Of a stretch of DNA of 64,000 bases, positions 46,168 through 61,801 are shown in pieces. Within the stretch, counting starts at the first letter, position 1; the number at the start of each line of letters is the position of its first letter. Source of the DNA: Akkermansia sp. (GTDB taxonomy: Bacteria; Verrucomicrobiota; Verrucomicrobiia; Verrucomicrobiales; Akkermansiaceae); NCBI GenBank assembly GCA_045531695.1, contig JAZSEM010000053.1, positions 1,307 through 65,306 of the forward strand, given 5' to 3'. The notes beneath the pieces are model-generated. The model saw only the letters and a program-made list of their open reading frames with translations. It had not been told where the DNA came from and ran no database searches. The translations under genes and the position numbers were made by a program.

Positions 46168-46395
46168 TGTTCACCATGCGGGGGATTACCCGCGCGCGGA
46201 TTGTACCACAATCTAACCTGTTTTGGCAAGCTGAATGTCAGATAGATGCAACTTTTTTTGTTGATGGAGCTTATTTGCGTTACGCTGAGTGAAAAACTGT
46301 TTGGCGGATGCTGGTCGCGAGCATTCGCCAATTGGTAATTCTGCGTAGCGAGTTGTTTTTAGGGAGGTGGAAAAGAGAACTGCCCCCTCCCTTGC

Positions 46396-46737
46396 TGGTA
46401 TTCCGCCTTTCGGCTGAATGTGCTTTTAGCTTCCATTGGCGTACGCCTCGCATTCCGCCACCCGCTCACGTCACAAATGCCTTTCGGCTGAATGTGCTTT
46501 TAGCTTCAGGTGATGTACGAGATAAAGGTGCAGCTCGAAACGCTGAGTCACAAATGCCTTTCGGCTGAATGTGCTTTTAGCTTGTGTCAAAAAGACTCTG
46601 GCAACCTGCAGCAATCTCACGTCACAAATGCCTTTCGGCTGAATGTGCTTTTAGCTTCGCATTCTCCCGTCGTAGGAGTTATGACCAGACTCAGCCGGAC
46701 GTCACAAATGCCTTTCGGCTGAATGTGCTTTTAGCTT
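46396..46737 (-). CRISPR. CRISPR array 1: 4 intact plus 1 truncated 37-nt repeats, 4 spacers (37, 40, 37, 43 nt)
   Basis: Repeat (+ strand) gtcacaaatgcctttcggctgaatgtgcttttagctt at 46470, 46547, 46621 and 46701. The left copy is degenerate (conserved 46405-46432) and an AT-rich leader lies to the right, so it is read on the - strand. Confidence 0.97.
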
Positions 46738-47100
46738 AGCTGAAAAAATGCGGGAAGTCAAGCATTCTTTGAAAAAAGAGGAATAATGAGTATAGCTGTG
46801 TTAGAAGTTGTAAGAGACTATATAATGAATGTATTAGAGGAGATAAGAGAGGGGTGAGTCTAAAAACTGATTTCAGTTCTGAGTACCCCAAAAATGGGGG
46901 GTGAAATCAGAAATGGGGGTAAAATGCGGTAAAATTACCGGAAATTGGTGAAAAATAGGTATTTTGGAACATGGGGAAATGGAGAAAATATATGCCAAAA
47001 TGGGGCAGATTGCTTATTTTTGACTAAAAATGGGCGTTTTTACTCAGAAAAACTGATTTCACCCCTGCTGAAAATGGCGTTTGGAACTGAAATCAGTTTT
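46738..47100. promoter_or_regulatory. CRISPR leader / divergent promoter region 1 with 48-bp inverted repeats
   Basis: Colinear with 58530-58892 at a constant offset of 11,792. Arms at 46863-46910 and 47053-47100. Confidence 0.8.
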
Positions 47101-47270
47101 GATTGAAAAATCATAAACAACTCGGGAGTCGGGGGAGTGTAATGTTCCGGAATGTTCCGGCAATGGAAAATCTGACAAAAATGTGTTTTAATACACATGT
47201 CATCGGACGTAAGTAAGAAATAAGCACACAACAGAAAATGAATAAATCAACATCACATAAATATCAAATC

Positions 47271-47732
47271 ATGCAAATCCGCAATACCATCAACGTCCTT
47301 TCCGCTATCCCCGCTCTGTACCGGAATAAGTTGCTGCCCTCCATCGAAGCGCTGCTGCAGAGCAAATGGGGGCGCATGGTAGGTGACCCTCAGTTCCGTG
47401 GTCAGCTTATTGATCTGGCTGAGTCGTGGCTGAACAAGCACAAGGAGAGCCCGCTGGCTGCCCATCTAATTCGCCTGCTGGAAATGCTGCGCCCGCTTCT
47501 TACCGACACTGAGCCGCTGAGCAAAACAAAGATGCTGGCTATAGCTGCCGCTGTGCTCTATGTGATAAGCACGCTGGATGTAGTTCCCGATTTCCTGCCG
47601 CTCATCGGCTGGCTGGATGACCTGGGAGTGATCGCGATGGTGCTGCGCCACGCACTGGGCGAGCGTGCGGGCGAGGCGCTCTCAGGAATAATCGGGAAAG
47701 TTCTTCCCCTTGCAACCACCCGCAAAGCATGA
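47271..47732 (+). CDS. YkvA/DUF1232-family membrane protein, copy 1 (long-tail type)
   Basis: AAVLYVISTLDVVPDFLPLIGWLDD motif. Likely start 47271 (ORF track gives 47238). Confidence 0.85.
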   Translation: MQIRNTINVLSAIPALYRNKLLPSIEALLQSKWGRMVGDPQFRGQLIDLAESWLNKHKESPLAAHLIRLLEMLRPLLTDTEPLSKTKMLAIAAAVLYVISTLDVVPDFLPLIGWLDDLGVIAMVLRHALGERAGEALSGIIGKVLPLATTRKA

Positions 47733-47818
47733 TTTAATACAGACATCACCAACCTCTCAATAAACATACTCAAACATATAAACAACAATCTATAAATCCC
47801 CAACTCACACACTATCAT

Positions 47819-48232
47819 ATGCAAATACAGAACACCATCAACGTTATTTCCACCATCCCTGCTCTGTACCAGAATAAGCTGCTGTCCTCCGTCGAAGCGC
47901 TGCTGCAGAGCAAATGGGGGCGCATGGTAGGTGACCCTCAGTTCCGTGGTCAGCTTATTGGCCTGGCCGAGGCGTGGCTGAACAAGCACAAGGAGAGCCC
48001 GCTGGCTGCACATCTCATTCGCCTGCTGGAAATGCTGCGCCCGCTGCTCACAAGCGAGGAGCCGCTGAGCAAGACAAAGATGCTGGCCATAGCCGCAGCA
48101 GTGCTCTACGTTATCTCTCCAATCGATTCGTTACCGGATATTCTTCCGGGTGTCGGTTGGCTGGATGATTTAGGTATCGTACTGCTGGTTCTGCGCTATG
48201 TCCTGGGAATTCCGGCAGCGGAAAAAAGTTGA
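47819..48232 (+). CDS. YkvA/DUF1232-family membrane protein, copy 2 (short-tail type)
   Basis: Canonical LYVISPIDSLPDILPGVGWLDD motif. Confidence 0.88.
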   Translation: MQIQNTINVISTIPALYQNKLLSSVEALLQSKWGRMVGDPQFRGQLIGLAEAWLNKHKESPLAAHLIRLLEMLRPLLTSEEPLSKTKMLAIAAAVLYVISPIDSLPDILPGVGWLDDLGIVLLVLRYVLGIPAAEKS

Positions 48233-48310
48233 ATGAGGTGTTACGTCCTTTCAACGGGATGTTTGAGGGGGCAAACACGGGCTTTCAATAATAGCTCATT
48301 TCAACAAATA

Positions 48311-48364
48311 TATAAATCCCTTCCCCAGTGCTTTTTGATAAAGCAGCAGAGGAAGGGATTTATA
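48311..48364. terminator. Hairpin between the convergent DUF1232 pair and cmr operon
   Basis: 14-bp stem tataaatcccttcc / ggaagggatttata. Confidence 0.65.
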
Positions 48365-48372
48365 GTGCGTTG

Positions 48373-49275
48373 TTAAAGGTTGGTGAAGTTGTGTTCTCTT
48401 GCCTTTGCTCCCAAAGTAAAATCCGGCGCCTTGAGAATACAGAGTTTGAGCTTGTTTTCTATAAGTACAGGTCGGAATCGCACGGCAGAGCTCTGCCGAT
48501 CACCTATGGCATTGCCCAGTGCCGAGGTCCCATAGTGAGAGCCTTTTTTCGCGGATTGGCCTTTGCTTAGCGTGGGGTGAATACCGAGATTTTTTCGGTA
48601 TTCCTTGAGTTTCTGTGCGCAGTCTGATAGAAGCTGGGTTGTTACAGAACCATCGCCGAAATTTCCGTATTCTTTTTTGTCGAACAACCTGAAATTGAAA
48701 TTCTTTTTTACAATATTGTTGTTCAGTAGTTCGAGCACCTTCTGTTCATCCGTTTTAACCGGTGCATAGGCGCCCAGAGCACGTGTTTTACGAGCACCGA
48801 TAGCGCCAAGATTACACAGGCAGTCCCAAGCGAGACTCAGCAATTCCATATTAGCCGGGTTGATATCTTTCACTTGGCGTAACTCCAGCGTAAACTTTTT
48901 TTTAGGTGGTAGGTATGCATCTGAGCGTACGATTTTTGTCGCATCGAAGTTTTTTTCGTTGGCGCTCAGGAAATAAGTGATGTATGAGGAATTGGCAATT
49001 TTAATATTGGGTTGCTCAAAGCTCCAGCGAAAATCTGTTGGAGAAGGTTTAATGTTGACAACCAGCAGAGCTACGGCGGATGCTTGGCATTCACCATATA
49101 TTCCGCCGAAAACGGCTTGTTCCTGCTCCCTGGTTCCACCAAGGCAGCGGAACCACCAGCGTAGCTCACCTCGAAAAGATGCAGCCCTCAGTTCCGGGGC
49201 TGTTTGATCAGCACCGGCACAAAAGCATGGGGTGATGAGTTGGAGTTCACACGAACGAAATATTTTGGGAATCAT
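48373..49275 (-). CDS. cmr1: Type III-B RAMP protein Cmr1
   Basis: LQLITPCFCAGA…LRAASFRGELRWWFR and the Gly-rich loop LGAIGARKTRALG. Confidence 0.88.
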   Translation of the reverse strand: MIPKIFRSCELQLITPCFCAGADQTAPELRAASFRGELRWWFRCLGGTREQEQAVFGGIYGECQASAVALLVVNIKPSPTDFRWSFEQPNIKIANSSYITYFLSANEKNFDATKIVRSDAYLPPKKKFTLELRQVKDINPANMELLSLAWDCLCNLGAIGARKTRALGAYAPVKTDEQKVLELLNNNIVKKNFNFRLFDKKEYGNFGDGSVTTQLLSDCAQKLKEYRKNLGIHPTLSKGQSAKKGSHYGTSALGNAIGDRQSSAVRFRPVLIENKLKLCILKAPDFTLGAKAREHNFTNL

Positions 49276-50435
49276 GGGATATCCGGTAAGTTGATGTTGT
49301 AATTTTGTGCCATTTGGAACATGGCTTCCAGCGCTTTCTTGCGGGCTTTTTCCTCTTTTTTATCTGAGATTTTCTTATCCAGGAAGTCTCGAAAATCCTT
49401 CAGACGGCATGCCGGATCCTCTTCCGGTAAGGATATTGCTCGCAGCAGAGCCCAGTGATTCATGGGCTTTTTGTCCTTATCTTTGTGGAATTTGGAGAAC
49501 ATGTCGTGGAGTTTCTCCTTTTTGGAGATAAAGAGAATAGCTTCCTGCTGTTCCGGGGTGAAGATTTGCAGAGACTTATCGGCTACCTCGAAATAGCCAT
49601 ATCCGGCTGCTCCTTTAGCTCCAATTCCAAAGAGGATGAGTGCTTGGGTGAGCCATTCTTCAGCTGTGTCGAGTATTTCCGTGGCTGTGGGGGCATAGAG
49701 GGTGAAGCTGTAAATGGCATCTTTTCCGTACTCCACTGCCGGAAAGTAGCAGGGGGTGGGGAGTTCGTCATCTGTAGGATTGGGGGTGTCCCCTGACATG
49801 TAGTTTTTGTGGTGTGGGGTGAGTACCTCAGCACAGAGTTGTACTGTATTTTGGGGAACCGCCTGCATAAAATAAACCTGACCTTGTCGGGGACCATAGA
49901 GTTCCGCAAACTCATGGAGCCGGTTTTCGGGAATGGCTAGAGCTAAATCACTGTCTTTCTGGAAATCTGATTGAGAGCAACCGAAAATACGAACAAATAA
50001 ATCCAACAGTTTTTCTACCTGTTCAGCATCTTCGCATTCTTGCATTTTGGCTATGGCATATCGTCTGGCTGCACCTTTCACTGCGCTTCCCGGTATGATT
50101 GGAACGCCACAGCTGTGTTCCAGCGCAATGCTGGCATTTTCGAGAATACTGCCGGAAAGATTAATCAACAGTCTGCTTTGCAGAGTTGCTTGTATGGTGC
50201 GGCATCGGCTTATCGGAAGTGAGTCCACAAAATGCGTCCAGTACGAGCCGAAAGTCCGGAGCTCCGCTGCATGAATCAGTGCTTCTACCCCCTTTTTTTT
50301 GTATTCAGCGTCTTCGCTGCCATCTTCACCTCGTGCTGATGGTGCAAAATACGTGCTTGCCAATGTGCGGGCTCGATCATTGCCGGAGAGTGAATGCCAG
50401 GCATTTTTTGCCCGGTTTGCTGCATAGATATTCAT
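49272..50435 (-). CDS. cmr6: Type III-B RAMP protein Cmr6
   Basis: GVPIIPGSAVKGAAR, EVLTPHH…PTDDELP and GIGAKGAAGYG motifs. Confidence 0.92.
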   Translation of the reverse strand: MNIYAANRAKNAWHSLSGNDRARTLASTYFAPSARGEDGSEDAEYKKKGVEALIHAAELRTFGSYWTHFVDSLPISRCRTIQATLQSRLLINLSGSILENASIALEHSCGVPIIPGSAVKGAARRYAIAKMQECEDAEQVEKLLDLFVRIFGCSQSDFQKDSDLALAIPENRLHEFAELYGPRQGQVYFMQAVPQNTVQLCAEVLTPHHKNYMSGDTPNPTDDELPTPCYFPAVEYGKDAIYSFTLYAPTATEILDTAEEWLTQALILFGIGAKGAAGYGYFEVADKSLQIFTPEQQEAILFISKKEKLHDMFSKFHKDKDKKPMNHWALLRAISLPEEDPACRLKDFRDFLDKKISDKKEEKARKKALEAMFQMAQNYNINLPDIP

Positions 50436-50440
50436 AAGGC

Positions 50441-50827
50441 TTAAAGTTTATTCATGGCACGAACAAATCGCTTCAGGTAATTGAGGTAGGTCAGGCACTC
50501 ATCCGACATCATGGCCAGTTGTGTGGGCTCTGATGTTGTGGAGATGGTGCGGATGGCTGACATCACATCTGTCGGCAAGGGGGAGCCGGGGAAACGTTTT
50601 CGGGCCTGCAAGTTGCTCAGGTGGCCGATGAGGGACTGTGCAATCAGTTGGCACTCGCCGCCTTTGTCTACGCTGTATGCCAAGGTCGCCAGCAGACCAT
50701 TGGTGATGATGAGGGAGTGGTAGCCTGAAAGCTGGTCACCTTCTTTACCTCGAGCACAGTGGATTTTTTCTGCATCCGCCAGTGCGTTTGCAGCACGGAA
50801 TTGCTCCATGTTGATGATAGTTTTCAT
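50441..50827 (-). CDS. cmr5: Type III-B small subunit Cmr5
   Basis: 128-aa helical protein with SLIITNGLLATLAY and LNYLKRF, between cmr4 and cmr6. Confidence 0.85.
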   Translation of the reverse strand: MKTIINMEQFRAANALADAEKIHCARGKEGDQLSGYHSLIITNGLLATLAYSVDKGGECQLIAQSLIGHLSNLQARKRFPGSPLPTDVMSAIRTISTTSEPTQLAMMSDECLTYLNYLKRFVRAMNKL

Positions 50828-50847
50828 AACAGCACAAGAGAATGGAG

Positions 50848-51648
50848 TTAAATAAGAGATGTTGTGCAGAACCCGAGGCCGGTGGTGGCATCTGCCCCAA
50901 TTTGGAGAACCGGGGGTATATTCAGCTTGTCGAGGGTACCGGTGCGCAACTCGGTGAGAGTGGCATAGAAAAGAGTTTCTGCCGGAACATTTTCCTGATT
51001 GAAGAGTGCGCCATCAGCTGCCGTTCCGGTGCTATCATCAATTTTAACGTGTTGGGCAATTTCGCAGGAGGATGTGCAGAAGTGACTGAGCATTTCATCG
51101 GAGGCGAGGAGTAGGTGGTCCCCCAGAAGCTCAGTCCACATGGGGTCGGCGCATGCTGTTTGCAACGCTTCCACCAGCCCGGTGGGCAGGGGGGCTGCAT
51201 CGAGCAGGTAGCCTTCCAACAGAACTTGCCCGGCTTGTGTTTGGAGGGAATCTGCTGCATATACAGAGCAACCCTCTGTTCGGGGAATGTCGTAGGAACG
51301 GCCGGTGTCGCGCAGCCAGCGTTGCAATGCCAGCGGACTGGTTACCCAGGCAAAGCAGCCTCGGGCGCTGCGCACCGGGAACGCCAGTAGCTTGGCTTCG
51401 CCGAATGCCAATCCCCCGGACTGATTAGAGTTTTCTTTGCCCAGTATGGCTTCGCCATCTGCTGTGCGGCGGAATTGGGAGTCCAGATAGAGGTCGGCAA
51501 TTACTCCCTTGATGGCAGAACCGGGAATGCAAGGGAAACCGGTATGTCTTTCGCGTACAATGGGTTGATCGATAGCTCCGACAGAGGCTCCGGCTCCGAT
51601 GTGGAGTGGTGTGCGGGTAAAGATGGAAAGAATGGATGTAGTGGACAT
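50848..51648 (-). CDS. cmr4: Type III-B RAMP backbone protein Cmr4
   Basis: TPLHIGAG…IDQPIVRERHTGFPCIPGSAIKG, LLAFPVRS, ENVPAETLFY and IGADATTGLG. Start 51648 preferred. Confidence 0.93.
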   Translation of the reverse strand: MSTTSILSIFTRTPLHIGAGASVGAIDQPIVRERHTGFPCIPGSAIKGVIADLYLDSQFRRTADGEAILGKENSNQSGGLAFGEAKLLAFPVRSARGCFAWVTSPLALQRWLRDTGRSYDIPRTEGCSVYAADSLQTQAGQVLLEGYLLDAAPLPTGLVEALQTACADPMWTELLGDHLLLASDEMLSHFCTSSCEIAQHVKIDDSTGTAADGALFNQENVPAETLFYATLTELRTGTLDKLNIPPVLQIGADATTGLGFCTTSLI

Positions 51649-51676
51649 AAAGATGAATAATGATGAGAGTTGAAGT

Positions 51677-53002
51677 TTATTTTGCAAAATGCCAGATAGC
51701 GCATACGCCGAGGCCGAAGCCTTGCTCCCCCAGTAGTTCTGAGCGGCGGTTGAGTGAGCCTGAAGCAGTGCAATGCAGTGCCTGACAGAGCTGCTCTGCA
51801 TCGGCAACACTATTACACTCAAAGTAATATACTGAGCCTGCCGGTGCCGCAGAGTGGGCAGCTTTGGGGCCTTCCTCGGCATCCGGTCTGTCGGTAGTGG
51901 AATAGCCGGCTATGGAGAGTGGCTTGCCTACTACCGCGGCAACCAAGTGGGCTGCTATACGGTTCTTGCTTGCTTGCAGTCGAGCTCTCCATGCTGCGCG
52001 GGATTCCCCCTCATTGCGGGCGCGATTCCCCCCCTGCAACAGAACGTCACCGGTGGTAGCGTGCACCCAGCTGGGCAGCCAGCCGCCGGGGTGTTCTCCG
52101 TGTCGGCTCCAGATAGCCGGGGTAATCAGTACCCATTTGACACGAACTTTCCCATCGATATCCTGCTGCAACTCTGGTATGGGGGGAAGTGGCAGTTCAC
52201 TGATGGAACTTAACACGGCGGTGCATATTCTTTGTTGACCTCCGACAACGATGCGATTATTTTGCTGTAACAGCTCTTCTAACACGTCTTTGCGTCCGCC
52301 ATCCGCTGTTTTTTCTGAAGAACTTACCCAACTGCCTATGCTCCACCCCGGTTTGATTCGCAGTCCGGAGTATGAGTAAAATGTGCCGGCTTTTACTGTG
52401 TTTGTTGCATCCTCGCGGGCTATACCATAGTGGTGTTCCAAATCTGCGATATCAGCATAGTTAATTCCCTGTCGGTTGTTGAGCTGGGGATGTTGTTTAC
52501 CTGTCACTCCCTGTGCAGATGTTCGGACGTACTGCTGCCAAGCCGTAGAGGAGAGCCAGATGGGAGCTCGGTTTTCTTTACTGGGTGCGCAAAGGCTTGC
52601 TACACTGTAGCGCAGGGGGGCCGGTAAGGTGGACTGCCCTGCCATTTCTTTGGACAGAGGTAGGCTGGTGGGAGCTGCTATGCCCAGCTCCATATCCAGC
52701 GGGCAGGGGAAGTACCATTCCTGCTCTGTGGCATCGACACGCACCGGGAAGGGGCCGGCGTGTAGCAATGAACCATAACGTGAGGTGCGATTTTCAGCTC
52801 CGCTGTATCTGCGCTGCTGACCGCGCGTGTGGAACTCATGATTGTGGCCGGATATGCCACTGCGGTGCAGGGCTGCACGCAACGCATGTGATATGAGATC
52901 CGGCGTGGGCCAGAACATTGTATGTCCTGCGAGGGCACCCTCCATGGGACGGGCATCGCGTATCATGAGTATATCGGAAGGTGTTAAAATAAGCTGGTTC
53001 AT
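51677..53002 (-). CDS. cmr3: Type III-B RAMP protein Cmr3
   Basis: PSDILMIRDARP, PTPDLISHALR, LITPAIW, AAPAGSVYYF and GFGLG. Start 53002 preferred. Confidence 0.9.
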   Translation of the reverse strand: MNQLILTPSDILMIRDARPMEGALAGHTMFWPTPDLISHALRAALHRSGISGHNHEFHTRGQQRRYSGAENRTSRYGSLLHAGPFPVRVDATEQEWYFPCPLDMELGIAAPTSLPLSKEMAGQSTLPAPLRYSVASLCAPSKENRAPIWLSSTAWQQYVRTSAQGVTGKQHPQLNNRQGINYADIADLEHHYGIAREDATNTVKAGTFYSYSGLRIKPGWSIGSWVSSSEKTADGGRKDVLEELLQQNNRIVVGGQQRICTAVLSSISELPLPPIPELQQDIDGKVRVKWVLITPAIWSRHGEHPGGWLPSWVHATTGDVLLQGGNRARNEGESRAAWRARLQASKNRIAAHLVAAVVGKPLSIAGYSTTDRPDAEEGPKAAHSAAPAGSVYYFECNSVADAEQLCQALHCTASGSLNRRSELLGEQGFGLGVCAIWHFAK

Positions 53003-53003
53003 G

Positions 53004-54839: not shown

Positions 54840-54875
54840 GGATTGTTATGTGTGTTATGTTGTACGTATTGATTT

Positions 54876-55241
54876 CTATACCTCCACAAGACCTTCGTAG
54901 CTGAAAACACTGTGTTTTTCTACCCTTCCATCGGGCTGGTGTACCTCTTTACTGCGTCGCAGAGAAAAGGAAAAGTAGGTCCGGACTCCGCGTCGTTTCA
55001 GGCTTTGTGTCAGCTGTGCCATCAGGAAGGGAGCTCCACCCAGCATGGCTCCTTCAGCCCCTGCGGTGACTGCCAGCCCAGCCAGCTGTTCGGCGCGTTG
55101 CTGTACGTCTGCCAGAGTTGGCGGTGCGATGAAGGTAAGCAGTTCCCGTACCTGCTTGCTCAGCGGGGCAGGAAGTTCCTGTATGTTGTCTTTCTTTTGT
55201 TCTTCGGTCAGTGAGTGTTGTGTAAGGTTATAAATTGGCAT
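54876..55241 (-). CDS. Small CRISPR-associated alpha/beta protein, Csx15/Csx20-like N-terminus (candidate ring nuclease)
   Basis: 121 aa, with NLTQHSLTEEQ, LLTF, AMLGGAPFLM and YFSFSLR. Located directly upstream of cas10. Confidence 0.6.
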   Translation of the reverse strand: MPIYNLTQHSLTEEQKKDNIQELPAPLSKQVRELLTFIAPPTLADVQQRAEQLAGLAVTAGAEGAMLGGAPFLMAQLTQSLKRRGVRTYFSFSLRRSKEVHQPDGRVEKHSVFSYEGLVEV

Positions 55242-55270
55242 AGTAATAGGGTAGTTATTTGTTCGATGGA

Positions 55271-56386
55271 TTATTTTTTTTGGAATTTGATGTCGTGTAT
55301 TCTGTCGAATCCTATGGGGCTGTGAGGTTTGAGAGCATCTTCAGCCACCACGCTGTAACCGTTGTTTTCCAGTGTTTGTTTCAGGTATGTCTTTTCCTTG
55401 CTGAATATTCTAGGGTAATTATCCTTCCATGCTTCTTCCTTGAAGAGTTCCTCTTTTTCCCAGCGTCGAAGAATTTCATTGGGCAATCTGTTTGATTCGC
55501 GTAACCTGTTTCTCCATTTGTTGGCAAGCTTGTATGTAAGCTCCATGATTTCGCCCTTTTTTTTCCCTTTAAGAGCGTGCATTGCCATGATGGCCATCAG
55601 CATGTATTGGCGCGGAGGAAGTTCCAGAGATTCTCCATTGATGATGACCTTGCAGTCGCTTGTACTTATGCGTATCTTTACATCCTCAGGATATAGCTGG
55701 GTTATATGTTCCCTTGCTCGCCCCATGAGTCGGGAGAAGGAACCGCCGGTTTCAAAGTCCGCTCCTTTCACCAGTGAAACCAACGGTACAAAGGGAATCT
55801 CTGCCAAATCTATTTTCACTTGTGCAGCGGTGAAATCCTCCCCCGTTCTGTTTATCAGCTGCTGCTTTTCCTGTTCCGGGAAGAAGAACTCCGTGCAGCT
55901 GGTGACTTTCTCATCTGCCAGCACGTGAGTTATGATGTCGTCACTGCTTGCTCCCAGACACATGGCTGCATACATCAGCGCGCTCATACTTTTGCGACCA
56001 CCTGCAATGGAGGCCACCAGTCGGCATATTTCCAGCTCAGGGTTTTTATAGCTACGGATTACACGTAGCAGTTGATCGGCCACAAGATTCTGGTCGGTGC
56101 TGGTTACAATGTCTATCAATTCGCAGCCTTGGTCATCTTCAAAGATGTATTTGGATAATTTGATTTTTTTTCTGAGTTTGTGTTCCAGCATTTTCCATAC
56201 GCTCATTTTTTCCTTTTGTTTCAGCAGCATGCTTTCTAACTTTTCCCAGCCGGTACGTGTGGTACATACCTTTACTTCATCCGGTACGAGGTCGGGGTGT
56301 TCTATGTGTAGTCCCCATATGGTCTCTGTTACCACGGCAGGGCTCATACCTACCACGGTTATTAAAACTACTTTTTCGCTGTTCAT
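55271..56386 (-). CDS. csx14: NE0113/Csx14-type CARF domain protein with putative C-terminal winged helix
   Basis: VLITVVGMSPAVVTETIWGL and SIAGGRKSMS…ITHVL CARF motifs. The C-terminal ~130 aa resembles an OmpR-type wHTH. Confidence 0.8.
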   Translation of the reverse strand: MNSEKVVLITVVGMSPAVVTETIWGLHIEHPDLVPDEVKVCTTRTGWEKLESMLLKQKEKMSVWKMLEHKLRKKIKLSKYIFEDDQGCELIDIVTSTDQNLVADQLLRVIRSYKNPELEICRLVASIAGGRKSMSALMYAAMCLGASSDDIITHVLADEKVTSCTEFFFPEQEKQQLINRTGEDFTAAQVKIDLAEIPFVPLVSLVKGADFETGGSFSRLMGRAREHITQLYPEDVKIRISTSDCKVIINGESLELPPRQYMLMAIMAMHALKGKKKGEIMELTYKLANKWRNRLRESNRLPNEILRRWEKEELFKEEAWKDNYPRIFSKEKTYLKQTLENNGYSVVAEDALKPHSPIGFDRIHDIKFQKK

Positions 56387-56634
56387 TACTTTAATTCGTT
56401 TAATAGAATGTCGGTTGTATCGGGCCGGAATTAACTTCGTGCCACCTGCAATTTACATATCTACTTATAGCATCCTTTCTATTTACATGTCAATTTTTTT
56501 TTAATGCAGGAATCTTCCGGGAAATTCCTGCATGATTTGCAGACCGAGTATTGTATTATGATTAACAGTTTGTTATGCTATCTCATTAAGATGTGGAACA
56601 TTCCCATCACTTTAACCTCAATATATGAGTTACT

Positions 56635-57654
56635 ATGAGCACTATCTTTATCGATTTAGCATATGGCAAGGGGCACCTTCGAGGAGATTGTATGCACTTG
56701 GTTGGGATTCCCTGGAAAAATAATTACGAGGCTGATGAAGCCATTCGCGAGGAAATATCCCGCAGTGTGCCTCTATCACAGGTGGAGCATGTGGTTGTCA
56801 ATCCTCAGGTTACCCTTAGCGGAGCTTTGCTGCAGGCTCTCCTTGAACGAGGTGTTGCTATTACCATGCTGGTGCAGAAAGGACTGCTCGGTACTGCGCA
56901 GCCCACTGGGGCACCCAAGGGTCACCTGCGACTCGCTCAGTACCGTTGCTGTTGCGATGCCGACTGGGCCTTGCGACAGGCGCGTGTTATTGTATCAACC
57001 AAAATTCATAATCAGGCATTTATGCTCCGCCGTCGTAAAAATCCACCGCCCGACGCTTTCTTTCGAGAGATGAAGAAGCTGCAGAAAGCTACGCTGTCGG
57101 CGACTGATACCGCCATGCTCATGGGGATTGAAGGGAGAGCCAGTGCTCTTTATTTCCCGGAGTGGGCGCGGGCTCTTCCTCCCGCTTTTCCTTTTAATGG
57201 CCGTTCTCGTCGCCCTCCGCGTGATGCGGTGAATGCCTGCCTTTCCTATCTGTCGGCTCTATGTCAGTCCGATATGCTGCGGGCTGTGGTAGAAGTGGGC
57301 CTGGATGCCGAACTGGGAGTGTTGCACAGTACAGAAGATTATCGCCACAATCTTGTTCTGGATCTTATGGAACCGTTCCGTCCCATTCTGGTTGAGGGGG
57401 TGACTCGAGATGCCCTGACCCACGGAATGCTTGGTGAAGAAAGTACCGAGATTCTTCCTGCAGATGGAGGTTGTTATCTTACTTCGCAGGGGCGTATTGC
57501 TATTATTCGACGTTATGAACAACGTATGCTCAGCTCATTCTTGCAGGGGGATAAACATACGACGCTGCGGCAGTGCATGCACCAGGTGGCTCGTCATTGG
57601 AAACATGCCGTTATGGATTCCCAATTAATTGCCTCGAACTTTAAACTCTGCTGA
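56635..57654 (+). CDS. cas1: CRISPR integrase Cas1
   Basis: GIEGRASALYF, RRPPRDAVNACLSYL and GVLH…NLVLDLMEPFRP motifs. Confidence 0.95.
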   Translation: MSTIFIDLAYGKGHLRGDCMHLVGIPWKNNYEADEAIREEISRSVPLSQVEHVVVNPQVTLSGALLQALLERGVAITMLVQKGLLGTAQPTGAPKGHLRLAQYRCCCDADWALRQARVIVSTKIHNQAFMLRRRKNPPPDAFFREMKKLQKATLSATDTAMLMGIEGRASALYFPEWARALPPAFPFNGRSRRPPRDAVNACLSYLSALCQSDMLRAVVEVGLDAELGVLHSTEDYRHNLVLDLMEPFRPILVEGVTRDALTHGMLGEESTEILPADGGCYLTSQGRIAIIRRYEQRMLSSFLQGDKHTTLRQCMHQVARHWKHAVMDSQLIASNFKLC

Positions 57655-57657
57655 AAG

Positions 57658-57942
57658 ATGTACTTTCTTGTCAGTTACGATATCGCTAATCCCCGGCGTT
57701 TGCGGCGAGTTTGTCGTTTGCTGGAGGGTGCCGGTACTCGCGAGCAGTACTCTGTTTTCCTTTGCAATATGGGAAGTATGCGGAGTATGTTGATATTGTG
57801 GGATACCCTTCAACGGGAAATTGACCCGACCGTTGATAGGCTTTCAGCCTACCCTATTGATGCCGCAGCGATGGCTCAGGCTTTACACGCCGGCGATTTC
57901 CCGGTAAGCCTTTTGACGGAACCGCTCATTATCATTGCCTGA
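57658..57942 (+). CDS. cas2: CRISPR-associated endoribonuclease Cas2
   Basis: LVSYDIANPRRLRRV…QYSVF…DRL motif. Confidence 0.95.
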   Translation: MYFLVSYDIANPRRLRRVCRLLEGAGTREQYSVFLCNMGSMRSMLILWDTLQREIDPTVDRLSAYPIDAAAMAQALHAGDFPVSLLTEPLIIIA

Positions 57943-57967
57943 ACGAATCTGTTCTCGATTCATTACG

Positions 57968-58008
57968 CCAAAAAAGCCTCCATCATAATTTGATGGAGGC
58001 TTTTTTGG
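57968..58008. terminator. Bidirectional terminator between cas2 and array 2
   Basis: ccaaaaaagcctccatca-taatt-tgatggaggcttttttgg. Confidence 0.85.
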
Positions 58009-58051
58009 GTGATGAAATAGATATCGTCGGTCTTTTGTAGCCAATGAGAGG

Positions 58052-58529
58052 AATCTCTACGATTTTCGGCCGTGTGCTTGTTGCTTTGATGCAGTTTACC
58101 GTTAAAGAGGGACAGAAGCCTGTAGTCACACATGCCTTTCGGCTGAATGTGCTTGTAGCTTCGCGAAATGCGCACCCTCACCAACACCTGCCAAAAACAG
58201 TCACAAATGCCTTTCGGCTGAATGTGCTTGTAGCTTGTGCTATCCAGCGCGCTGTAGACACTGCTATCGGTGAGTCACAAATGCCTTTCGGCTGAATGTG
58301 CTTGTAGCTTCTTTATCGGATGCGATGCGTTCGGTAAGGATTCTGTGTCACAAATGCCTTTCGGCTGAATGTGCTTGTAGCTTAGTTCATGGTCGAGCAC
58401 GGCATTCCCGGGAGTGTGAGTCACAAATGCCTTTCGGCTGAATGTGCTTGTAGCTTTGTCGAAGAGAACGACAACCGCCGCTGTCCTATGTGGTCACAAA
58501 TGCCTTTCGGCTGAATGTGCTTGTAGCTT
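58052..58529 (-). CRISPR. CRISPR array 2: 6 intact plus 1 degenerate 37-nt repeats, 6 spacers (36-38 nt)
   Basis: Repeat gtcacaaatgcctttcggctgaatgtgcttgtagctt at 58125 (1 variant base), 58200, 58274, 58347, 58420 and 58493, with a degenerate copy ending at 58086. Leader lies to the right. Confidence 0.97.
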
Positions 58530-58892
58530 AGCTGAAAAAATGCGGGAAGTCAAGCATTCTTTGCAAAAAAGAGGAATAATGATTATATGTTTGTTATGTG
58601 TTGCAAGTCCTTTGTAATCAGCTTGTTACGAGAAATGAGAGTAACGTGAGTCCAAAAACTGATTTCAGTTCTGAGAGGTTTTAAAGTGGGGAGTGAAATC
58701 AGAAATAGGGGTAAAATGCGGTAAAAACGACCAAAAATGGTGAAAAATAGGCATTTCGGAGCATGGTGGAACAGAGAAAATATATGCCAAAATGGGGATG
58801 TGTGCTTATTTTCGGCTAAAAATGAGCGCTTCGACTCAGAAAAACTGATTTCACCCCCACTAAAAATGTGAACTCCGACTGAAATCAGTTTT
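58530..58892. promoter_or_regulatory. CRISPR leader / divergent promoter region 2 with 48-bp inverted repeats
   Basis: Homolog of 46738-47100. Arms at 58655-58702 and 58845-58892. Confidence 0.8.
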
Positions 58893-58931
58893 GCTCAAAA
58901 TATCACAATGATACAGGAATGTGTGACTATA

Positions 58932-58988
58932 CAGGAATTACCGGGAAAGTTCTTACCCTTGTAAACGACCACAAAGCATGATTAAATA
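58932..58988 (+). pseudogene. 3' remnant of a fifth DUF1232 gene
   Basis: 57 bp identical to 59481-59537 (last codons, stop and downstream bases of copy 3). Confidence 0.75.
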
Positions 58989-59068
58989 CAGACATCAACC
59001 AACTTCTCAATAAACATACTCAAACATATAAACAACAATCTATAAATCCCCAACTCACACACTATCAT

Positions 59069-59530
59069 ATGCAAATACAGAACACCATCAACGTCATTTC
59101 CACCATCCCCGCTCTGTACCAGAATAAGCTTCTGCCCTCCGTCGAAGCGCTGCTGCAGAGCAAATGGGGGCGCATGGTAGGTGACCCTCAGTTCCGAGGT
59201 CAGCTTATTGACCTTGCTGAGGCGTGGCTCACCAAGCATAAGGAGAGTCCTCTGGCTGCGCATCTCATTCGCCTGCTGAAAATGCTTCGCCCGCTGCTCA
59301 CCGGCACCGAGCCTCTGAGCAAGACAAAGATGCTGGCTATAGCCGCCGCCGTGCTCTACGTGATAAGCACGCTGGATGCAGTACCCGATTTCTTGCCGCT
59401 CATCGGCTGGCTGGATGACCTGGGAGTAATTACAATGGTACTGCGCTACGTGCTGGGCGAACGAGTGGGGGAGGCCCTCTCAGGAATTACCGGGAAAGTT
59501 CTTACCCTTGTAAACGACCACAAAGCATGA
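59069..59530 (+). CDS. YkvA/DUF1232-family membrane protein, copy 3 (long-tail type)
   Basis: LYVISTLDAVPDFLPLIGWLDD motif, 153 aa. Confidence 0.87.
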   Translation: MQIQNTINVISTIPALYQNKLLPSVEALLQSKWGRMVGDPQFRGQLIDLAEAWLTKHKESPLAAHLIRLLKMLRPLLTGTEPLSKTKMLAIAAAVLYVISTLDAVPDFLPLIGWLDDLGVITMVLRYVLGERVGEALSGITGKVLTLVNDHKA

Positions 59531-59609
59531 TTAAATAAAGTCATCAACCATAACCCAAAACAAACAACCTAAAACATACTACCTAAAACTCAACATACAC
59601 AACTATCTT

Positions 59610-60053
59610 ATGAAAATCGAGAACACCATCAATATCGGCACACTTACCCTCCGCAACGTCATTTCCGCCATTCCCGCTCTGTACCGGAATAAGTTGCTGC
59701 CCACCATCGAAGCCCTGCTGCAGAGCAAGTGGGGGCGCATGGTAAGTAATCCTCAGTTCCGCGGTCAGCTCATTGACATGGCAGAGGCGTGGCTGAACAA
59801 GCATAAGGACAGTCCGCTGGCGTTCCATCTCATTCGCCTGCTGGAAATGCTGCGCCCGCTGCTCACAAGCGAGGAGCCTCTGAGCAAGACAAAGATGCTG
59901 GCCATAGCTGCCGCCGTGCTCTACGTGATAAGCACGCTGGATGCAGTACCCGATTTCCTGCCGCTCATCGGCTGGCTGGATGACTTGGGAGTAATTGCAA
60001 TGGTACTGCGCTACGTAGTTGGTTCGGTAGAGAAAGAAAAATCGGTATTCTAA
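59610..60053 (+). CDS. YkvA/DUF1232-family membrane protein, copy 4 (short-tail type)
   Basis: Same motif, with a small N-terminal insertion (INIGTLTLRNV). Confidence 0.87.
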   Translation: MKIENTINIGTLTLRNVISAIPALYRNKLLPTIEALLQSKWGRMVSNPQFRGQLIDMAEAWLNKHKDSPLAFHLIRLLEMLRPLLTSEEPLSKTKMLAIAAAVLYVISTLDAVPDFLPLIGWLDDLGVIAMVLRYVVGSVEKEKSVF

Positions 60054-60192
60054 TATAGGTAAAATGGATTTGCTAAAATCTGAAGAATGTGTGATGGAAA
60101 GGTAGGAGAAAAAGTTTAGACGTTTAGCCGTTGAAAAAAGTTGTTGACATTAACTTGAAGACATGAAATACTAGCTGAAGATTCAGCCTATT

Positions 60193-61704
60193 ATGTACAA
60201 AATCCTTATTCAGCTTGTGGGAGAGCAGTCGCTGCCGAATATTTTCCCTATTTTATCTCTTCATCCCAATCGTGTGGTGAATATTTTTACAATGAAAACG
60301 GAGAAAATTCACCGCAAAATTGCAAACTGGTGTGCCGAGCATGGCAAGGTGCACGGAGTTTCTCCGAAATTTGTAGAACATGAACCGATAGGTGAGGATT
60401 TGAGTAGCGTACAGTCAGGTATTTTCCGTATACTTCGCAAAGAAGTCGAACGGATGCAGGAAAAACCGGGAGCCATGATGATTCTGAACATGACCGGTGG
60501 CACGAAAGCTATGGCAGCCAGTGCGATTTCTCTCTGCCAACAGATTTCCGGCATGCGTGTAAAGGAAGGGCATCCCCCGGTACCTATCTGCTATCTGAAT
60601 CCGAACACGGGTGAGCTGGAGTTTGTAACATGTTCGGAACGGGAGTCGGTTGTGGTTGTTCGCCCTGCACGGGAGCTGAGGCTTACGGTTGCTGAGATTA
60701 TAGAGAGTGGTGGGGATACTAAGGTAGTATCTGCCCGCAGGGACTGGACTCAGGTGTACCCGGCAGCGATAAAACTGAAGTCGCTGGCGGACAGAAGGGT
60801 GCTTTTTACATTGGAGGATGCCAGAGTAGAAAATTATGCTGAGAAGGTAAAATCGCCGCTTTCGACAATGTTAGAGGATAAAGATCCCAATCGCCTCAAA
60901 AAGCTGGTGGTGGAAATGAAAAAACTTGCGGCTTGGGTTGAGAAGAATGACTCTGCACTCAAAGGGGTGGAATTGTGTGGATTTGAGGTGAAGAATGGTG
61001 ACATTTACTTTTCTGAGGTATTGCAAAAAGAGGTGGATGCTACAAAAAAGGAAATTTCATCCAATTGTGAGCTGTCAAAAGCAGATAAGAAAGGAATAGA
61101 AAGAAAAATGTGCATGAAACTGAACAACTGTGCCAATTTCTTTGTTGGCGGTTGGTGGGAGGTAATTGTGGCACATGCATATCAGAAATTGAATCCTGAA
61201 TCGGAGGTGTTGTGGTCTGTAGAGACTGCTCAAAAAAACAATCTAGAGCATGTGGTAGAGACGGATATTATAGCGACGGATGGTCGTTCTTTGTGTGGTA
61301 TATCGTGTAAGCGTGGTATGCACCTTAATAAGGTAACACAGGAGCTGGAGCAACATTGTACCCGCACCGCTTTGTTGGGGGGGATCATTCATAAACGTAT
61401 CATTGCCGTTTATAACAGCAAGCTTTTTAGCGGGCTGAATGCATTGATGAGTGCTTTGCGCCTTACTTTGTGGGATTCGAAAAAAGTTGAGGCGATAGAA
61501 AATAATATTGCTTACAGGGGGGCTGAGTCGCTATTGGGGGTTGCAGGTTCTCCTCAAGTAAAAGCTCCGGAAAACTCAACCCTTGAGCAGTCTGAACATG
61601 ATGGTGACGATGAATCTGCTGTGACCCGTCCATCATTTATTAAGCGTTTAACTATTGCGGTGCGCTACCTGTTCGGCAGTGGCAAACATCCTCAGGATTC
61701 CTGA
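60193..61704 (+). CDS. Card1/Can2-like (DUF1887) CARF plus PD-(D/E)xK nuclease effector
   Basis: LVGEQSLPN and LNMTGGTKAM CARF motifs, and GGWWE…ETDIIAT…ISCK nuclease motif. Confidence 0.85.
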   Translation: MYKILIQLVGEQSLPNIFPILSLHPNRVVNIFTMKTEKIHRKIANWCAEHGKVHGVSPKFVEHEPIGEDLSSVQSGIFRILRKEVERMQEKPGAMMILNMTGGTKAMAASAISLCQQISGMRVKEGHPPVPICYLNPNTGELEFVTCSERESVVVVRPARELRLTVAEIIESGGDTKVVSARRDWTQVYPAAIKLKSLADRRVLFTLEDARVENYAEKVKSPLSTMLEDKDPNRLKKLVVEMKKLAAWVEKNDSALKGVELCGFEVKNGDIYFSEVLQKEVDATKKEISSNCELSKADKKGIERKMCMKLNNCANFFVGGWWEVIVAHAYQKLNPESEVLWSVETAQKNNLEHVVETDIIATDGRSLCGISCKRGMHLNKVTQELEQHCTRTALLGGIIHKRIIAVYNSKLFSGLNALMSALRLTLWDSKKVEAIENNIAYRGAESLLGVAGSPQVKAPENSTLEQSEHDGDDESAVTRPSFIKRLTIAVRYLFGSGKHPQDS

Positions 61705-61746
61705 TAGCATTGAGTGAAATGGATTGCCTTTAATCGCTTGAATATG

Positions 61747-61784
61747 AAAAAAAGGCCGGCACTCGGGGGAGTGTCGGCCTTTTT
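61747..61784. terminator. Bidirectional terminator at the right border of the CRISPR island
   Basis: aaaaaaaggccggcactc-…-gagtgtcggccttttt. Confidence 0.8.
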
Positions 61785-61801
61785 CTTGGGTGGGTTTGGG
61801 G

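Follow-up and report, generated by a model that had tools for sequence, protein, structure and literature searches.

Two direct copies of an array–leader–DUF1232 module bracket a type III-B CRISPR island of Akkermansia and define a candidate accessory gene family

Architecture of the island and its bracketing modules

The 64,000-nucleotide stretch of Akkermansia sp. DNA analyzed here (the window) carries a type III-B (Cmr) CRISPR island at about 46.2–61.8 kb (46168–61802); the host is an Akkermansia-like gut bacterium. The complete core of this island, which comprises minus-strand cmr1, cmr6, cmr5, cmr4, cmr3, cas10, csx20 and a gene for an NE0113-family CARF protein, along with plus-strand cas1 and cas2, is bracketed by two direct, same-orientation copies of a module consisting of a CRISPR array, a leader and two genes for small proteins of the DUF1232 family (copy A, with genes A1 and A2, and copy B, with genes B1 and B2). 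This bracketed layout, with both modules facing the same way, had been proposed in an earlier reading of the bare sequence (the original prediction), and repeat finding together with open reading frame (ORF) and domain searches bears it out. The two modules contain the following features, with strands given where they apply:

46396–46737, minus: array A, four perfect 37-nt repeats (GTCACAAATGCCTTTCGGCTGAATGTGCTTTTAGCTT) of the variant ...GCTTTTAGCTT and four spacers, from repeat finding and reading of the sequence
46738–47116: leader A, with the repeat-proximal block AGCTGAAAA...GTCAAG and nested inverted repeats
47135–47215, plus: cassette of A1 (GGAATGTTCCGGAATGTTCC ... TTTTAATACACATGTCA), with a CCGGAA box
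47271–47732, plus: DUF1232 gene A1 (PF06803), 153 aa according to the gene caller, 164 aa if started at 47238
47683–47760, plus: cassette of A2 (repeat family D7), overlapping the 3′ end and stop codon of A1
47819–48232, plus: DUF1232 gene A2 (PF06803), 137 aa, resembling B1 in its 5′ part and of a second allele type in its 3′ part
~58052–58529, minus: array B, six repeats (...GCTTGTAGCTT), a further distal repeat that is degenerate and bears an indel, and five to six spacers
58530–58908: leader B, matching leader A colinearly at the 11,792-bp offset
58932–59010, plus: cassette of B1 (repeat family D7), 97% identical to the B2 cassette
59069–59530, plus: DUF1232 gene B1 (PF06803), 153 aa
59481–59560, plus: cassette of B2, overlapping the 3′ end of B1
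59610–60053, plus: DUF1232 gene B2 (PF06803), 147 aa

Both arrays have 37-nt repeats and spacers of 36–43 nt (37–43 nt in array A), and each directly adjoins its leader. In both, the degenerate repeat lies to the left (in array A at 46396–46432, on the side away from the leader) and the leader to the right; therefore, both arrays are read leftward. On the minus strand, the repeat closes with ...GCCGAAAGGCATTTGTGAC, in which a small hairpin precedes a tail that might provide the typical 8-nt CRISPR RNA (crRNA) tag. As originally claimed, the two arrays have no spacer in common and each is fixed for its own repeat variant: repeat position 31 is a T in every A repeat, including the degenerate and oldest one, and a G in every B repeat. 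A second case of repeat-variant turnover in this clade is seen in an Akkermansia sp. metagenome-assembled genome (MAG; GCA_045591805.1), whose array has AAC in the older repeats and AGC in the newer ones, and which carries one spacer (TGCAAGGTAGCGGCGATTTTTGCTGCGCTAGTCGTA) twice (L001 1–233, L048 43–130; loci compared with the window are cited by their L numbers).

The leader-proximal repeat together with the leader (46701–47116 versus 58493–58908) is colinear at exactly 11,792 bp. The fixed offset described originally holds for the repeat and the leader, but not past 47116/58908, where colinearity stops and the gene matches between the modules fall at offsets of 11,249 (A2–B1) and 12,363 (A1–B2). 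The leaders, each of ~380 bp, are 84% identical without gaps in their long blocks, with a mean column identity of 86% over a 580-column alignment; the exact matches between the module copies are of 90, 61, 55, 53 and 40 nt. Alignment of six leaders of the clade recovered a common repeat-proximal block with an invariant GTCAAG, and the same architecture is present in six to seven clade leaders: An outer inverted repeat pairs box 1 (AAAAACTGATTTCAG) with box 4 (CTGAAATCAGTTTT), and an inner one pairs box 2 (GGGGTGAAATCAG) with box 3 (CTGATTTCACCCC). In leader A, box 1 (~46863–46878) thus faces box 4 (~47086–47101), and box 2 (~46899–46911) faces box 3 (~47053–47066). The inner pair encloses ~130 nt of A/G-rich sequence with repeated AAAATGGGG-like motifs, and this spacing is conserved. 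The nested inverted repeats were located as follows:

Window, 46863–47101 and 58655–58893
L001, 1462–1720
L139, 7700–7960
L140, 1–210
L050, 3010–3270, minus
L135, 160–410, minus

In L050, the leader adjoins cas1 and no DUF1232 gene is seen there, yet the geometry is equal, with 128 nt between the first repeat and box 1 and ~223 nt between box 1 and box 4. Therefore, the element first described as a 363-bp leader, measured here at ~380 bp, is a genuine leader of this clade that is independent of DUF1232. The 13-bp helices formed by the boxes show 91–95% pairing, with one covarying (compensatory) pair in each of the two. With only a single such pair per helix, the inverted repeats might equally well form an RNA or DNA structure or constitute a set of half-sites for a binding protein.

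Authenticity and history of the two copies

A resemblance by chance is not credible, given that the modules have in common both the ~380-bp leader, at ~85% identity, and four paralogous ORFs. A further explanation would be that modules from different strains were joined, or that the assembly is collapsed or chimeric, such that the copies do not lie on one chromosome. The window does come from a metagenome-type contig, repeats are the usual points of breakage and chimerism, and no second contig spanning both copies was found. Nevertheless, we hold such an artifact to be very unlikely: the ~15% divergence of the copies is too great for an assembler to confuse them, all four junctions are unique sequence, and the arrays, at 0.34 and 0.48 kb, are short enough for paired reads to span. 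Moreover, the A2–cmr1 junction (cassette, A2, hairpin and 3′ end of cmr1) was independently assembled in the metagenome contigs L002 and L003 (from two samples) and L004, which are 88–96% identical to the window over 567–782 aligned nt. The order on the B side likewise recurs in the MAG, where one contig ends with the NE0113 gene, cas1, cas2 and an array, and another begins with an array, a leader, two DUF1232 genes, two small ORFs and a gene for a Can2-like protein; the contigs share a spacer at these ends and so join through the array. Misassembly, which the original prediction had named as grounds for its own dismissal, is thus unlikely.

The duplication is old, as originally stated, judging from the divergence of the leaders (~15%) and from that of the four DUF1232 genes, which are all intact and show synonymous divergences (dS) of 0.32–0.64 with ratios of nonsynonymous to synonymous divergence (dN/dS) of 0.19–0.31. 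These values indicate that all four copies are under purifying selection. However, the accompanying picture of simple duplicates that each kept an orthologous pair was not borne out. The two most similar copies are B1 and B2, and A2, the outlier, is nearest to its counterpart in L004 (dS 0.15). Sliding-window identity shows that the cassette and 5′ end of A2 are 91–100% identical to B1, and that its membrane-hairpin region is a second allele held in common with L002 and L004. This mosaic pattern implies that segments were exchanged by gene conversion, and, together with the dS pattern, it led us to reject the orthologous pairing of A1 with B1 and A2 with B2. The window copies are also nearer to one another than to those of the MAG, whose second DUF1232 gene is only 37% identical to its first, while the L139 pair is 99% identical. 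As the pairs are not orthologous between these lineages, tandem duplication has taken place on at least three separate occasions.

In the MAG, cmr1 is directly followed by dnaN with no counterpart of copy A, the only module is of the B type, and its repeat has a G at the variable position, as does array B. Hence, copy B occupies the ancestral position, and copy A, with its T variant, is derived. Since all the A repeats carry the T, including the oldest, and no spacer is held in common, array A probably grew from a founder repeat after the duplication; spacer gain after the split, as foreseen originally, thus stands, and both leaders appear to have supported spacer acquisition. We accordingly propose the following course of events: The ancestral order would have been cas1–cas2, an array read leftward from its leader, rightward DUF1232 genes and the Can2 gene, as in copy B. 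A segment of ~1.9 kb, comprising no less than the DUF1232 genes, the leader and the leader-proximal repeat, would then have been copied downstream of cmr1 to give rise to copy A. Both leaders would have stayed competent for spacer uptake, each array expanding from its own founder repeat, which would explain both the lack of common spacers and the private repeat variants. Repeated tandem duplication of the cassette with its gene, along with gene conversion, would have sustained the copy number of DUF1232. The direct repeats make it mechanically possible, as originally noted, for the core to be excised or amplified; no deletion or circle junction of the core was seen. If this course is correct, the island offers a clean natural example of an array–leader–accessory unit that was duplicated and then acquired spacers independently at both copies.

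A narrowly distributed DUF1232 subfamily linked to Cmr loci

The four copies score 45.0–46.6 bits against PF06803 (cut-off 23), and the other DUF1232 proteins of the window are 80–87% identical to A1. The subfamily displays an all-helical N-terminal domain of ~84 aa followed by a two-helix hydrophobic hairpin, with hydropathy placing the hydrophobic helices at residues ~85–106 and ~113–133, in agreement with the helices of an AlphaFold model. The loop between them bears the signature D-x-x-PD-x-x-P-x-x-G-W-L-DD; Y97, D103, P106, D107, G113, L115, D116 and D117 are invariant across 33 sequences, and this helix–loop arrangement is that of PF06803. B2 has an 8-residue N-terminal insertion that is also found in the MAG protein and in P0006 and P0007. 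PADLOC gave no matches for these proteins, a profile search of the PDB gave none below E=0.5, and their sole match in PHROGs is a family of unknown function, over the DUF1232 region.

Searches for relatives showed this to be a rare version of the domain. Beyond the window, three close relatives were recovered by a word-indexed search of 5.8 billion proteins; four more subfamily members (P0157 to P0160) came from a profile search; and a HMMER search with the 84-aa N-terminal domain against 1.84 billion representatives returned 13 matches at E<=1e-3, of which ~10 genuinely combine this domain with DUF1232. All seven loci with visible context (the window, the MAG, L002/L003, L004, L049, L139 and L140; five further subfamily members, P0175, P0177, P0179, P0182 and P0183, lie outside this count) have the subfamily gene beside Cmr genes, arrays or the clade leader, in four or five distinct arrangements, as is characteristic of associations recognized by gene neighborhood. 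They belong to a single Cas10 clade, 49–77% identical to the Cas10 of the window. The arrangements outside the window are:

MAG: array, leader, two DUF1232 genes, two small ORFs, Can2
L002, L003, L004: DUF1232 convergent with cmr1
L049: DUF1232–vWA–PP2C operon convergent with cmr1
L139: array, leader, cas1, cas2, 97-aa membrane ORF, two DUF1232 genes, PIN-kinase, Can2
L140: leader boxes 2–4, cassette, DUF1232

Two other kinds of genes populate the related loci. A vWA–PP2C operon, a gene coding for a PIN domain with a Ser/Thr kinase, and a 747-aa kinase lie beside cmr1, cas1–cas2 or Can2; genes of this vWA–PP2C/kinase type, none of which occurs in the window, are found at:

L049, 9882–12489
L133, 15675–17461 and 1840–4083
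L132, 15197–15260
L139, 11061–12902

Further, DUF1232 is accompanied in three relatives by a family of small ORFs that encode an RRW...EY.RRM motif, a run of glycines and a single transmembrane helix; it has no Pfam match and no member in the window:

L139, 9597–9890
L001, 3351–3536
L049, ~12770–12625, minus

As to a CRISPR link, loci with DUF1232 genes gave opposite answers at two levels. For the family at large, neither cas genes nor credible arrays were found in any of 42 loci of species-representative genomes or 80 metagenome loci (0 of ~120), and we therefore reject the notion that DUF1232 is generally CRISPR-linked; for this subfamily the link holds in each of the seven loci. Homologous Cmr loci without DUF1232, which had been thought fatal to the idea if general, do exist, while the subfamily loci are all on the CRISPR side. 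Leader-like DNA, in turn, was never encountered away from CRISPR but always adjoins an array, and the subfamily itself was never met outside CRISPR/Cmr DNA. Thus, the candidate CRISPR-linked module survives the test to which it had been put, and the locus holds a genuine duplicated module and a plausible candidate accessory family of the type III-B system. A literature search, which did not cover the supplements of two 2018 surveys (one of accessory genes, the other a neighborhood analysis in PNAS), yielded no paper that ties DUF1232, YkvA, COG3339 or PF06803 to CRISPR, and DUF1232 is not mentioned in the accessible part of the supplements of a 2024 census of type III effectors.

On this evidence, we consider it somewhat probable that the DUF1232 genes are functionally tied to the type III-B system. 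They could instead be passengers, that is, ordinary small membrane or stress proteins that sat beside an ancestral leader and were carried along with no role in CRISPR. This would accord with the lack of a CRISPR link for DUF1232 at large: the nearest full-length outgroups, ~35% identical, lie beside housekeeping genes (grpE, dnaJ and secA) in a Kiritimatiellae MAG (L007), and CRISPR was not found near the more distant homologs in L006 and L007. It would also accord with the phylogenetic range, as close relatives occur only in Akkermansia-like contigs; the association does not extend across phylogenetically independent lineages, the co-occurrence in seven of seven loci is that of one narrow lineage, and it could reflect shared descent of one island. 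Moreover, L050/L051, L132, L134 and L135–137, whose Cas10 proteins are 49–75% identical to that of the window, lack DUF1232 in their visible regions, so these genes are optional. However, mere passengers would hardly be expected to stay beside Cmr DNA across four or five rearrangements, with every copy under purifying selection and with recurrent, independent tandem duplication. The cassette discussed below also precedes neighboring accessory genes, a related palindrome lies upstream of cas1, and not one subfamily member was found outside a CRISPR context, though just ~10 clusters exist. Passenger status appears to us an unlikely though not negligible alternative to a functional tie with the type III-B system.

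A conserved cassette upstream of the DUF1232 genes

Every DUF1232 copy is preceded, 60–100 nt ahead of its start codon, by a cassette of ~75 nt with the consensus GGAAT-nn-TCCGGAA(A/T)GTTCTT, 4 nt, TTGnAA, 17 nt, GATTAAAT (opening form GGAATnnTCCGGAAAGTTCTT). The DUF1232 genes of the MAG, L049, L139 and L140 likewise have it, and in L139 it also stands ahead of the small membrane ORF and the PIN-kinase gene. Among 141 loci (1.47 Mb), it occurs in only seven, and wherever the downstream gene is visible, this is DUF1232 or a neighboring accessory gene. The sites are:

Window, ~47146, 47692, 58941 and 59490
L001, 2343
L140, 368 and 530
L139, 9446, 9894, 10451 and 11008
L049, 12585, minus

Within each pair, the first gene has its stop codon inside the following cassette, which also encodes the C-terminal tail of A1; hence, the "long-tail" form of A1, B1 and the first gene of the MAG represents read-through into regulatory DNA. 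We had also entertained the 70-nt repeat at 58932–59001 as the relic of a deleted third gene, and rejected this idea because it is more plausibly the cassette that precedes every copy.

A related element may exist in the divergent intergenic region between the NE0113 gene and cas1:

56508–56533: near-perfect palindrome GCAGGAATCTTCCGGGAAATTCCTGC, upstream of cas1

This palindrome and the CCGGAA boxes of the cassettes possibly represent a common operator. In addition, the L139 leader carries a TTCCGGAA box at its cas1-proximal end, in a stretch whose equivalent shows partial conservation among the six leaders aligned. As judged from its position and recurrence, the cassette would be a promoter/operator unit uniting DUF1232 with other accessory genes, and perhaps cas1, in one regulon.

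The Cmr core, the CARF proteins and the flanks

The remaining features of the island are:

48314–48361: hairpin AAATCCCTTCC...GGAAGGGATTT between the convergent A2 and cmr1, read by eye in the sequence
48373–49275, minus: cmr1 (TIGR01894, 37.7 bits, cut-off 28.65)
49272–50435, minus: cmr6 (TIGR01898, 98.6 bits)
50441–50827, minus: cmr5 (TIGR01881, 23.4 bits, under the cut-off; homologs in related loci have PF09701)
50848–51882 (longest ORF), minus: cmr4 (TIGR02580, 165 bits)
51677–53065, minus: cmr3 (TIGR01888, weak match; homologs have PF09700)
53004–54839, minus: cas10/cmr2, 611 aa (TIGR02577, 165 bits, cut-off 79.4; translation)
54876–55241, minus: csx20, MJ1673-like (homologs have PF27247)
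55271–56386, minus: NE0113-family (CARF5) protein, 371 aa (TIGR02584, 149.8 bits; PADLOC CARF5)
56635–57654, plus: cas1 (TIGR00287, 188 bits)
57658–57942, plus: cas2 (TIGR01573, 39.4 bits)
57970–58006: terminator-like hairpin AAAAAAGCCTCCATCA...TGATGGAGGCTTTTTT, located between cas2 and array B's distal end
60193–61704, plus: Can2/Card1-like CARF plus PD-(D/E)xK-type effector, 503 aa (PF23400, 37.3 bits, cut-off 24.6; PADLOC CARF4-PDDEXK)

Cmr1, Cmr4 and Cmr6 exceed their cut-offs; Cmr3 and Cmr5 fall below theirs but are syntenic with homologs having PF09700 and PF09701, which completes the set of Cmr subunits. The longest cmr4 ORF overlaps cmr3 by 206 nt; because its relatives are 265–269 aa long, its real start probably lies around 51650. 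An overlap, of 62 nt, also exists between the cmr3 and cas10 ORFs. No cas6 was found: all ORFs of the island are assigned, and the related Cmr loci with inspected gene tables (L048, L049, L050, L132–L139) have none either. A host RNase is reported to mature crRNA in another cas6-less III-B variant, and by analogy a host RNase might do so here. The hairpin at 48314–48361 is likely a bidirectional terminator, albeit one absent from the output of a consensus scan. An Rfam scan of 46–62 kb returned only sub-threshold, spurious terminator-like matches, at 57970–58006, and none for the leaders.

As read in the translation, Cas10 has the GGDD cyclase motif and lacks the N-terminal HD domain; therefore, immunity would have to proceed via cyclic oligoadenylate (cOA) signaling to the two CARF proteins. 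The first of these, the NE0113-family protein, is also matched by the PADLOC "CARF+WYL" model, and its C-terminus (residues ~235–290, xVxINGxxLxLxxxxYxLMAIM) weakly matches the OmpR-type winged helix of ArlR (E=0.044, profile positions 238–280). This raises the possibility that it may be a cOA-responsive transcription factor. The second has the N-terminal Card1-type CARF domain, with the family profile matching Card1 6WXW and Can2 7BDV (E ~3e-6), and is covered by the PADLOC CARF4-PDDEXK models. Its WWE motif and D358/D363 are conserved, and the ExK position of the (D/E)xK motif (residues ~358–373) reads SCK in place of the ECK of Card1 in all eight aligned Can2-like homologs of the clade, so that the nuclease chemistry may be altered or an acidic residue may be supplied from elsewhere. 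A promoter-like TTGACA-17-AATACT at 60144–60172 precedes this gene. The range first drawn for the island, 46396–61704, ends with it, and it belongs to the system, not to a flank.

To its left, the island is flanked by an ABC transporter gene and to its right by a BNR/sialidase-like gene, and its GC content, 46–54%, is below the 55–61% of these flanks (window 46000–62000 compared). In the Akkermansia MAG, the island adjoins dnaN (L048 10449–11540) and SulP (L001 5320–7023), a neighborhood unlike that of the window. The low GC and the differing chromosomal neighborhoods suggest that the island is mobile, and in the window it was probably gained by horizontal transfer. The left flank has an internal direct repeat of its own: two 300-nt segments (44537–44836 and 45284–45583), 95% identical and 747 bp apart, correspond to the two SBP_bac_3 domains of a 783-aa fused solute-binding/permease ABC transporter gene, which points to a recent internal duplication.

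Proposed role of the DUF1232 genes

Accessory effectors of many kinds are a known feature of type III CRISPR systems, among which the membrane-acting Cam1, Csx23 and CorA are recent discoveries; for a DUF1232/YkvA-type protein, we know of no established function in any organism. Taking together the neighborhoods, the cassette and the domain architectures, we propose that the DUF1232 genes might form an accessory regulon of the type III-B system, possibly under the control of the winged-helix-like C-terminus of the NE0113-family protein. Co-regulation through the CCGGAA cassette, perhaps by this protein, is a tentative suggestion. The products would reside in the inner membrane and serve as a membrane-directed effector or adaptor, in analogy to Cam1, Csx23 and CorA but with no recognizable nucleotide sensor; that they act in this manner at the inner membrane in the type III response is a guess that we hold more loosely still. 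Even less likely, though worth spelling out, is the conjunction of all these elements: a new class of type III membrane proteins, with the cassette being switched on upon infection by a cOA-sensing NE0113 protein, and with the outcome at the inner membrane being dormancy or the anchoring of signaling partners (vWA, PP2C and PIN-kinase proteins in the relatives). In such a scheme, duplication of the unit would provide twice the adaptation sites and twice the dose of effector, and the direct repeats could serve as a recombinational on/off switch of the Cmr core.

Several observations weigh against these proposals, beyond the phylogenetic ones given above. The DUF1232 proteins have no CARF, SAVED or other sensor domain in Pfam, PADLOC, NCBIfam-type or PDB profile searches, so a direct link to cOA is unsupported, and the AlphaFold2 model of B1, built on a 33-sequence alignment, is poor, with a predicted local distance difference test score (pLDDT) of 55 and a predicted template modeling score (pTM) of 0.39. 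On the regulatory side, a scan for the sigma-70 consensus showed no enrichment and did not detect the cassettes as promoters; the cas1-proximal palindrome fits the cassette pattern only with three mismatches and is not listed by a stricter scan; the winged-helix call depends on the E=0.044 match; and a single-sequence AlphaFold model of the NE0113-family protein, at a pLDDT of 41, is unusable. As to the arrays, all nine spacers (concatenated) had no match in 50,697 phage records and four 26-nt spacer cores had no exact match in IMG/VR; protospacers were thus not found, and any current activity of the arrays is putative.

The position of the genes also invites a reading in terms of adaptation, whereby DUF1232 would work with Cas1–Cas2 and the leader in spacer acquisition, for instance at the membrane where phage DNA enters, and not in interference. 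In the window, the MAG and L140, DUF1232 is indeed the immediate neighbor of the leader; its position in L139 is shortly downstream of cas1–cas2, with the 97-aa ORF between them; and the CCGGAA-type palindrome upstream of cas1 loosely resembles the cassette box. However, the L049 gene belongs to a vWA/PP2C operon that is convergent with cmr1 and far from any cas1, and in three loci the genes are near the Can2-like effector. No adaptation factor of the DUF1232 kind is known to us, and we judge this reading very unlikely, even beside the speculative type III effector or adaptor role that we prefer.

The repeated tie of this subfamily to Cmr loci, with a shared cassette, provides the first testable functional context for the widespread DUF1232 family. 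If the proposed role is true, a sensor-less membrane component would be added to the type III repertoire. Moreover, Akkermansia is an important gut commensal, and its phage defenses are of practical interest.

Comparison with known systems

In its core, the system resembles the Cmr systems that signal via cOA to Can2/Card1 (Treponema succinifaciens Card1, 6WXW; Can2, 7BDV): It has cmr1–6/cas10 with GGDD, a Card1-type CARF effector and a second CARF protein, cas1–cas2 and arrays with 37-nt repeats. Unlike these, Cas10 in the window lacks the HD domain, cas6 was not found, SCK stands in the place of ECK, and there are two arrays with duplicated leaders and DUF1232 genes. Two arrays served by one cas1–cas2 pair and one effector complex are also a feature of multi-array loci with homologous leaders; here, in contrast, the duplicated unit carries accessory genes and its copies bracket the whole operon as direct repeats.

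The type III membrane effectors and accessories include Cam1, Csx23 and CorA and the predicted Cam2 and Cam3, of which Cam3 has six transmembrane helices and Cam1 and Csx23 carry theirs at the N-terminus (PMC11229360). Nucleotide sensing is by a CARF domain in Cam1, a cA4-binding C-terminal domain in Csx23 and a SAM-AMP-responsive fold in CorA (PMC11229360). Like Cam1, Csx23 and CorA, the DUF1232 proteins are small, helical, predicted to span the membrane and encoded inside type III loci; unlike them, they have no CARF, SAVED, REC or other recognizable nucleotide-binding domain. Their topology, an N-terminal soluble domain followed by a C-terminal two-helix hairpin, also differs from those of Cam1, Csx23 and Cam3. 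As no sequence similarity to Cam1, Csx23, CorA, Cam2 or Cam3 was detected, they are not members of these families; by analogy with Cam3, they might be accessories instead of direct sensors.

Systems containing vWA domains have been discussed in the context of biological conflicts (PMC7159879). The neighbors of DUF1232 or Cmr genes in the relatives (vWA–PP2C in L049 and L133, PIN-kinase in L139) resemble the TerY-P-type modules of vWA, PP2C and Ser/Thr kinase; such genes are missing from the window, and their link to DUF1232 is positional only. With DUF1232/YkvA (PF06803, COG3339), finally, the proteins share a score above the Pfam threshold and the signature loop between hydrophobic helices; unlike that family at large, they form a very small subfamily with a specific N-terminal domain of ~84 aa that was seen only in CRISPR neighborhoods. 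The system is a member of type III-B (Cmr), with these DUF1232 proteins as a credible, narrowly distributed candidate accessory family.

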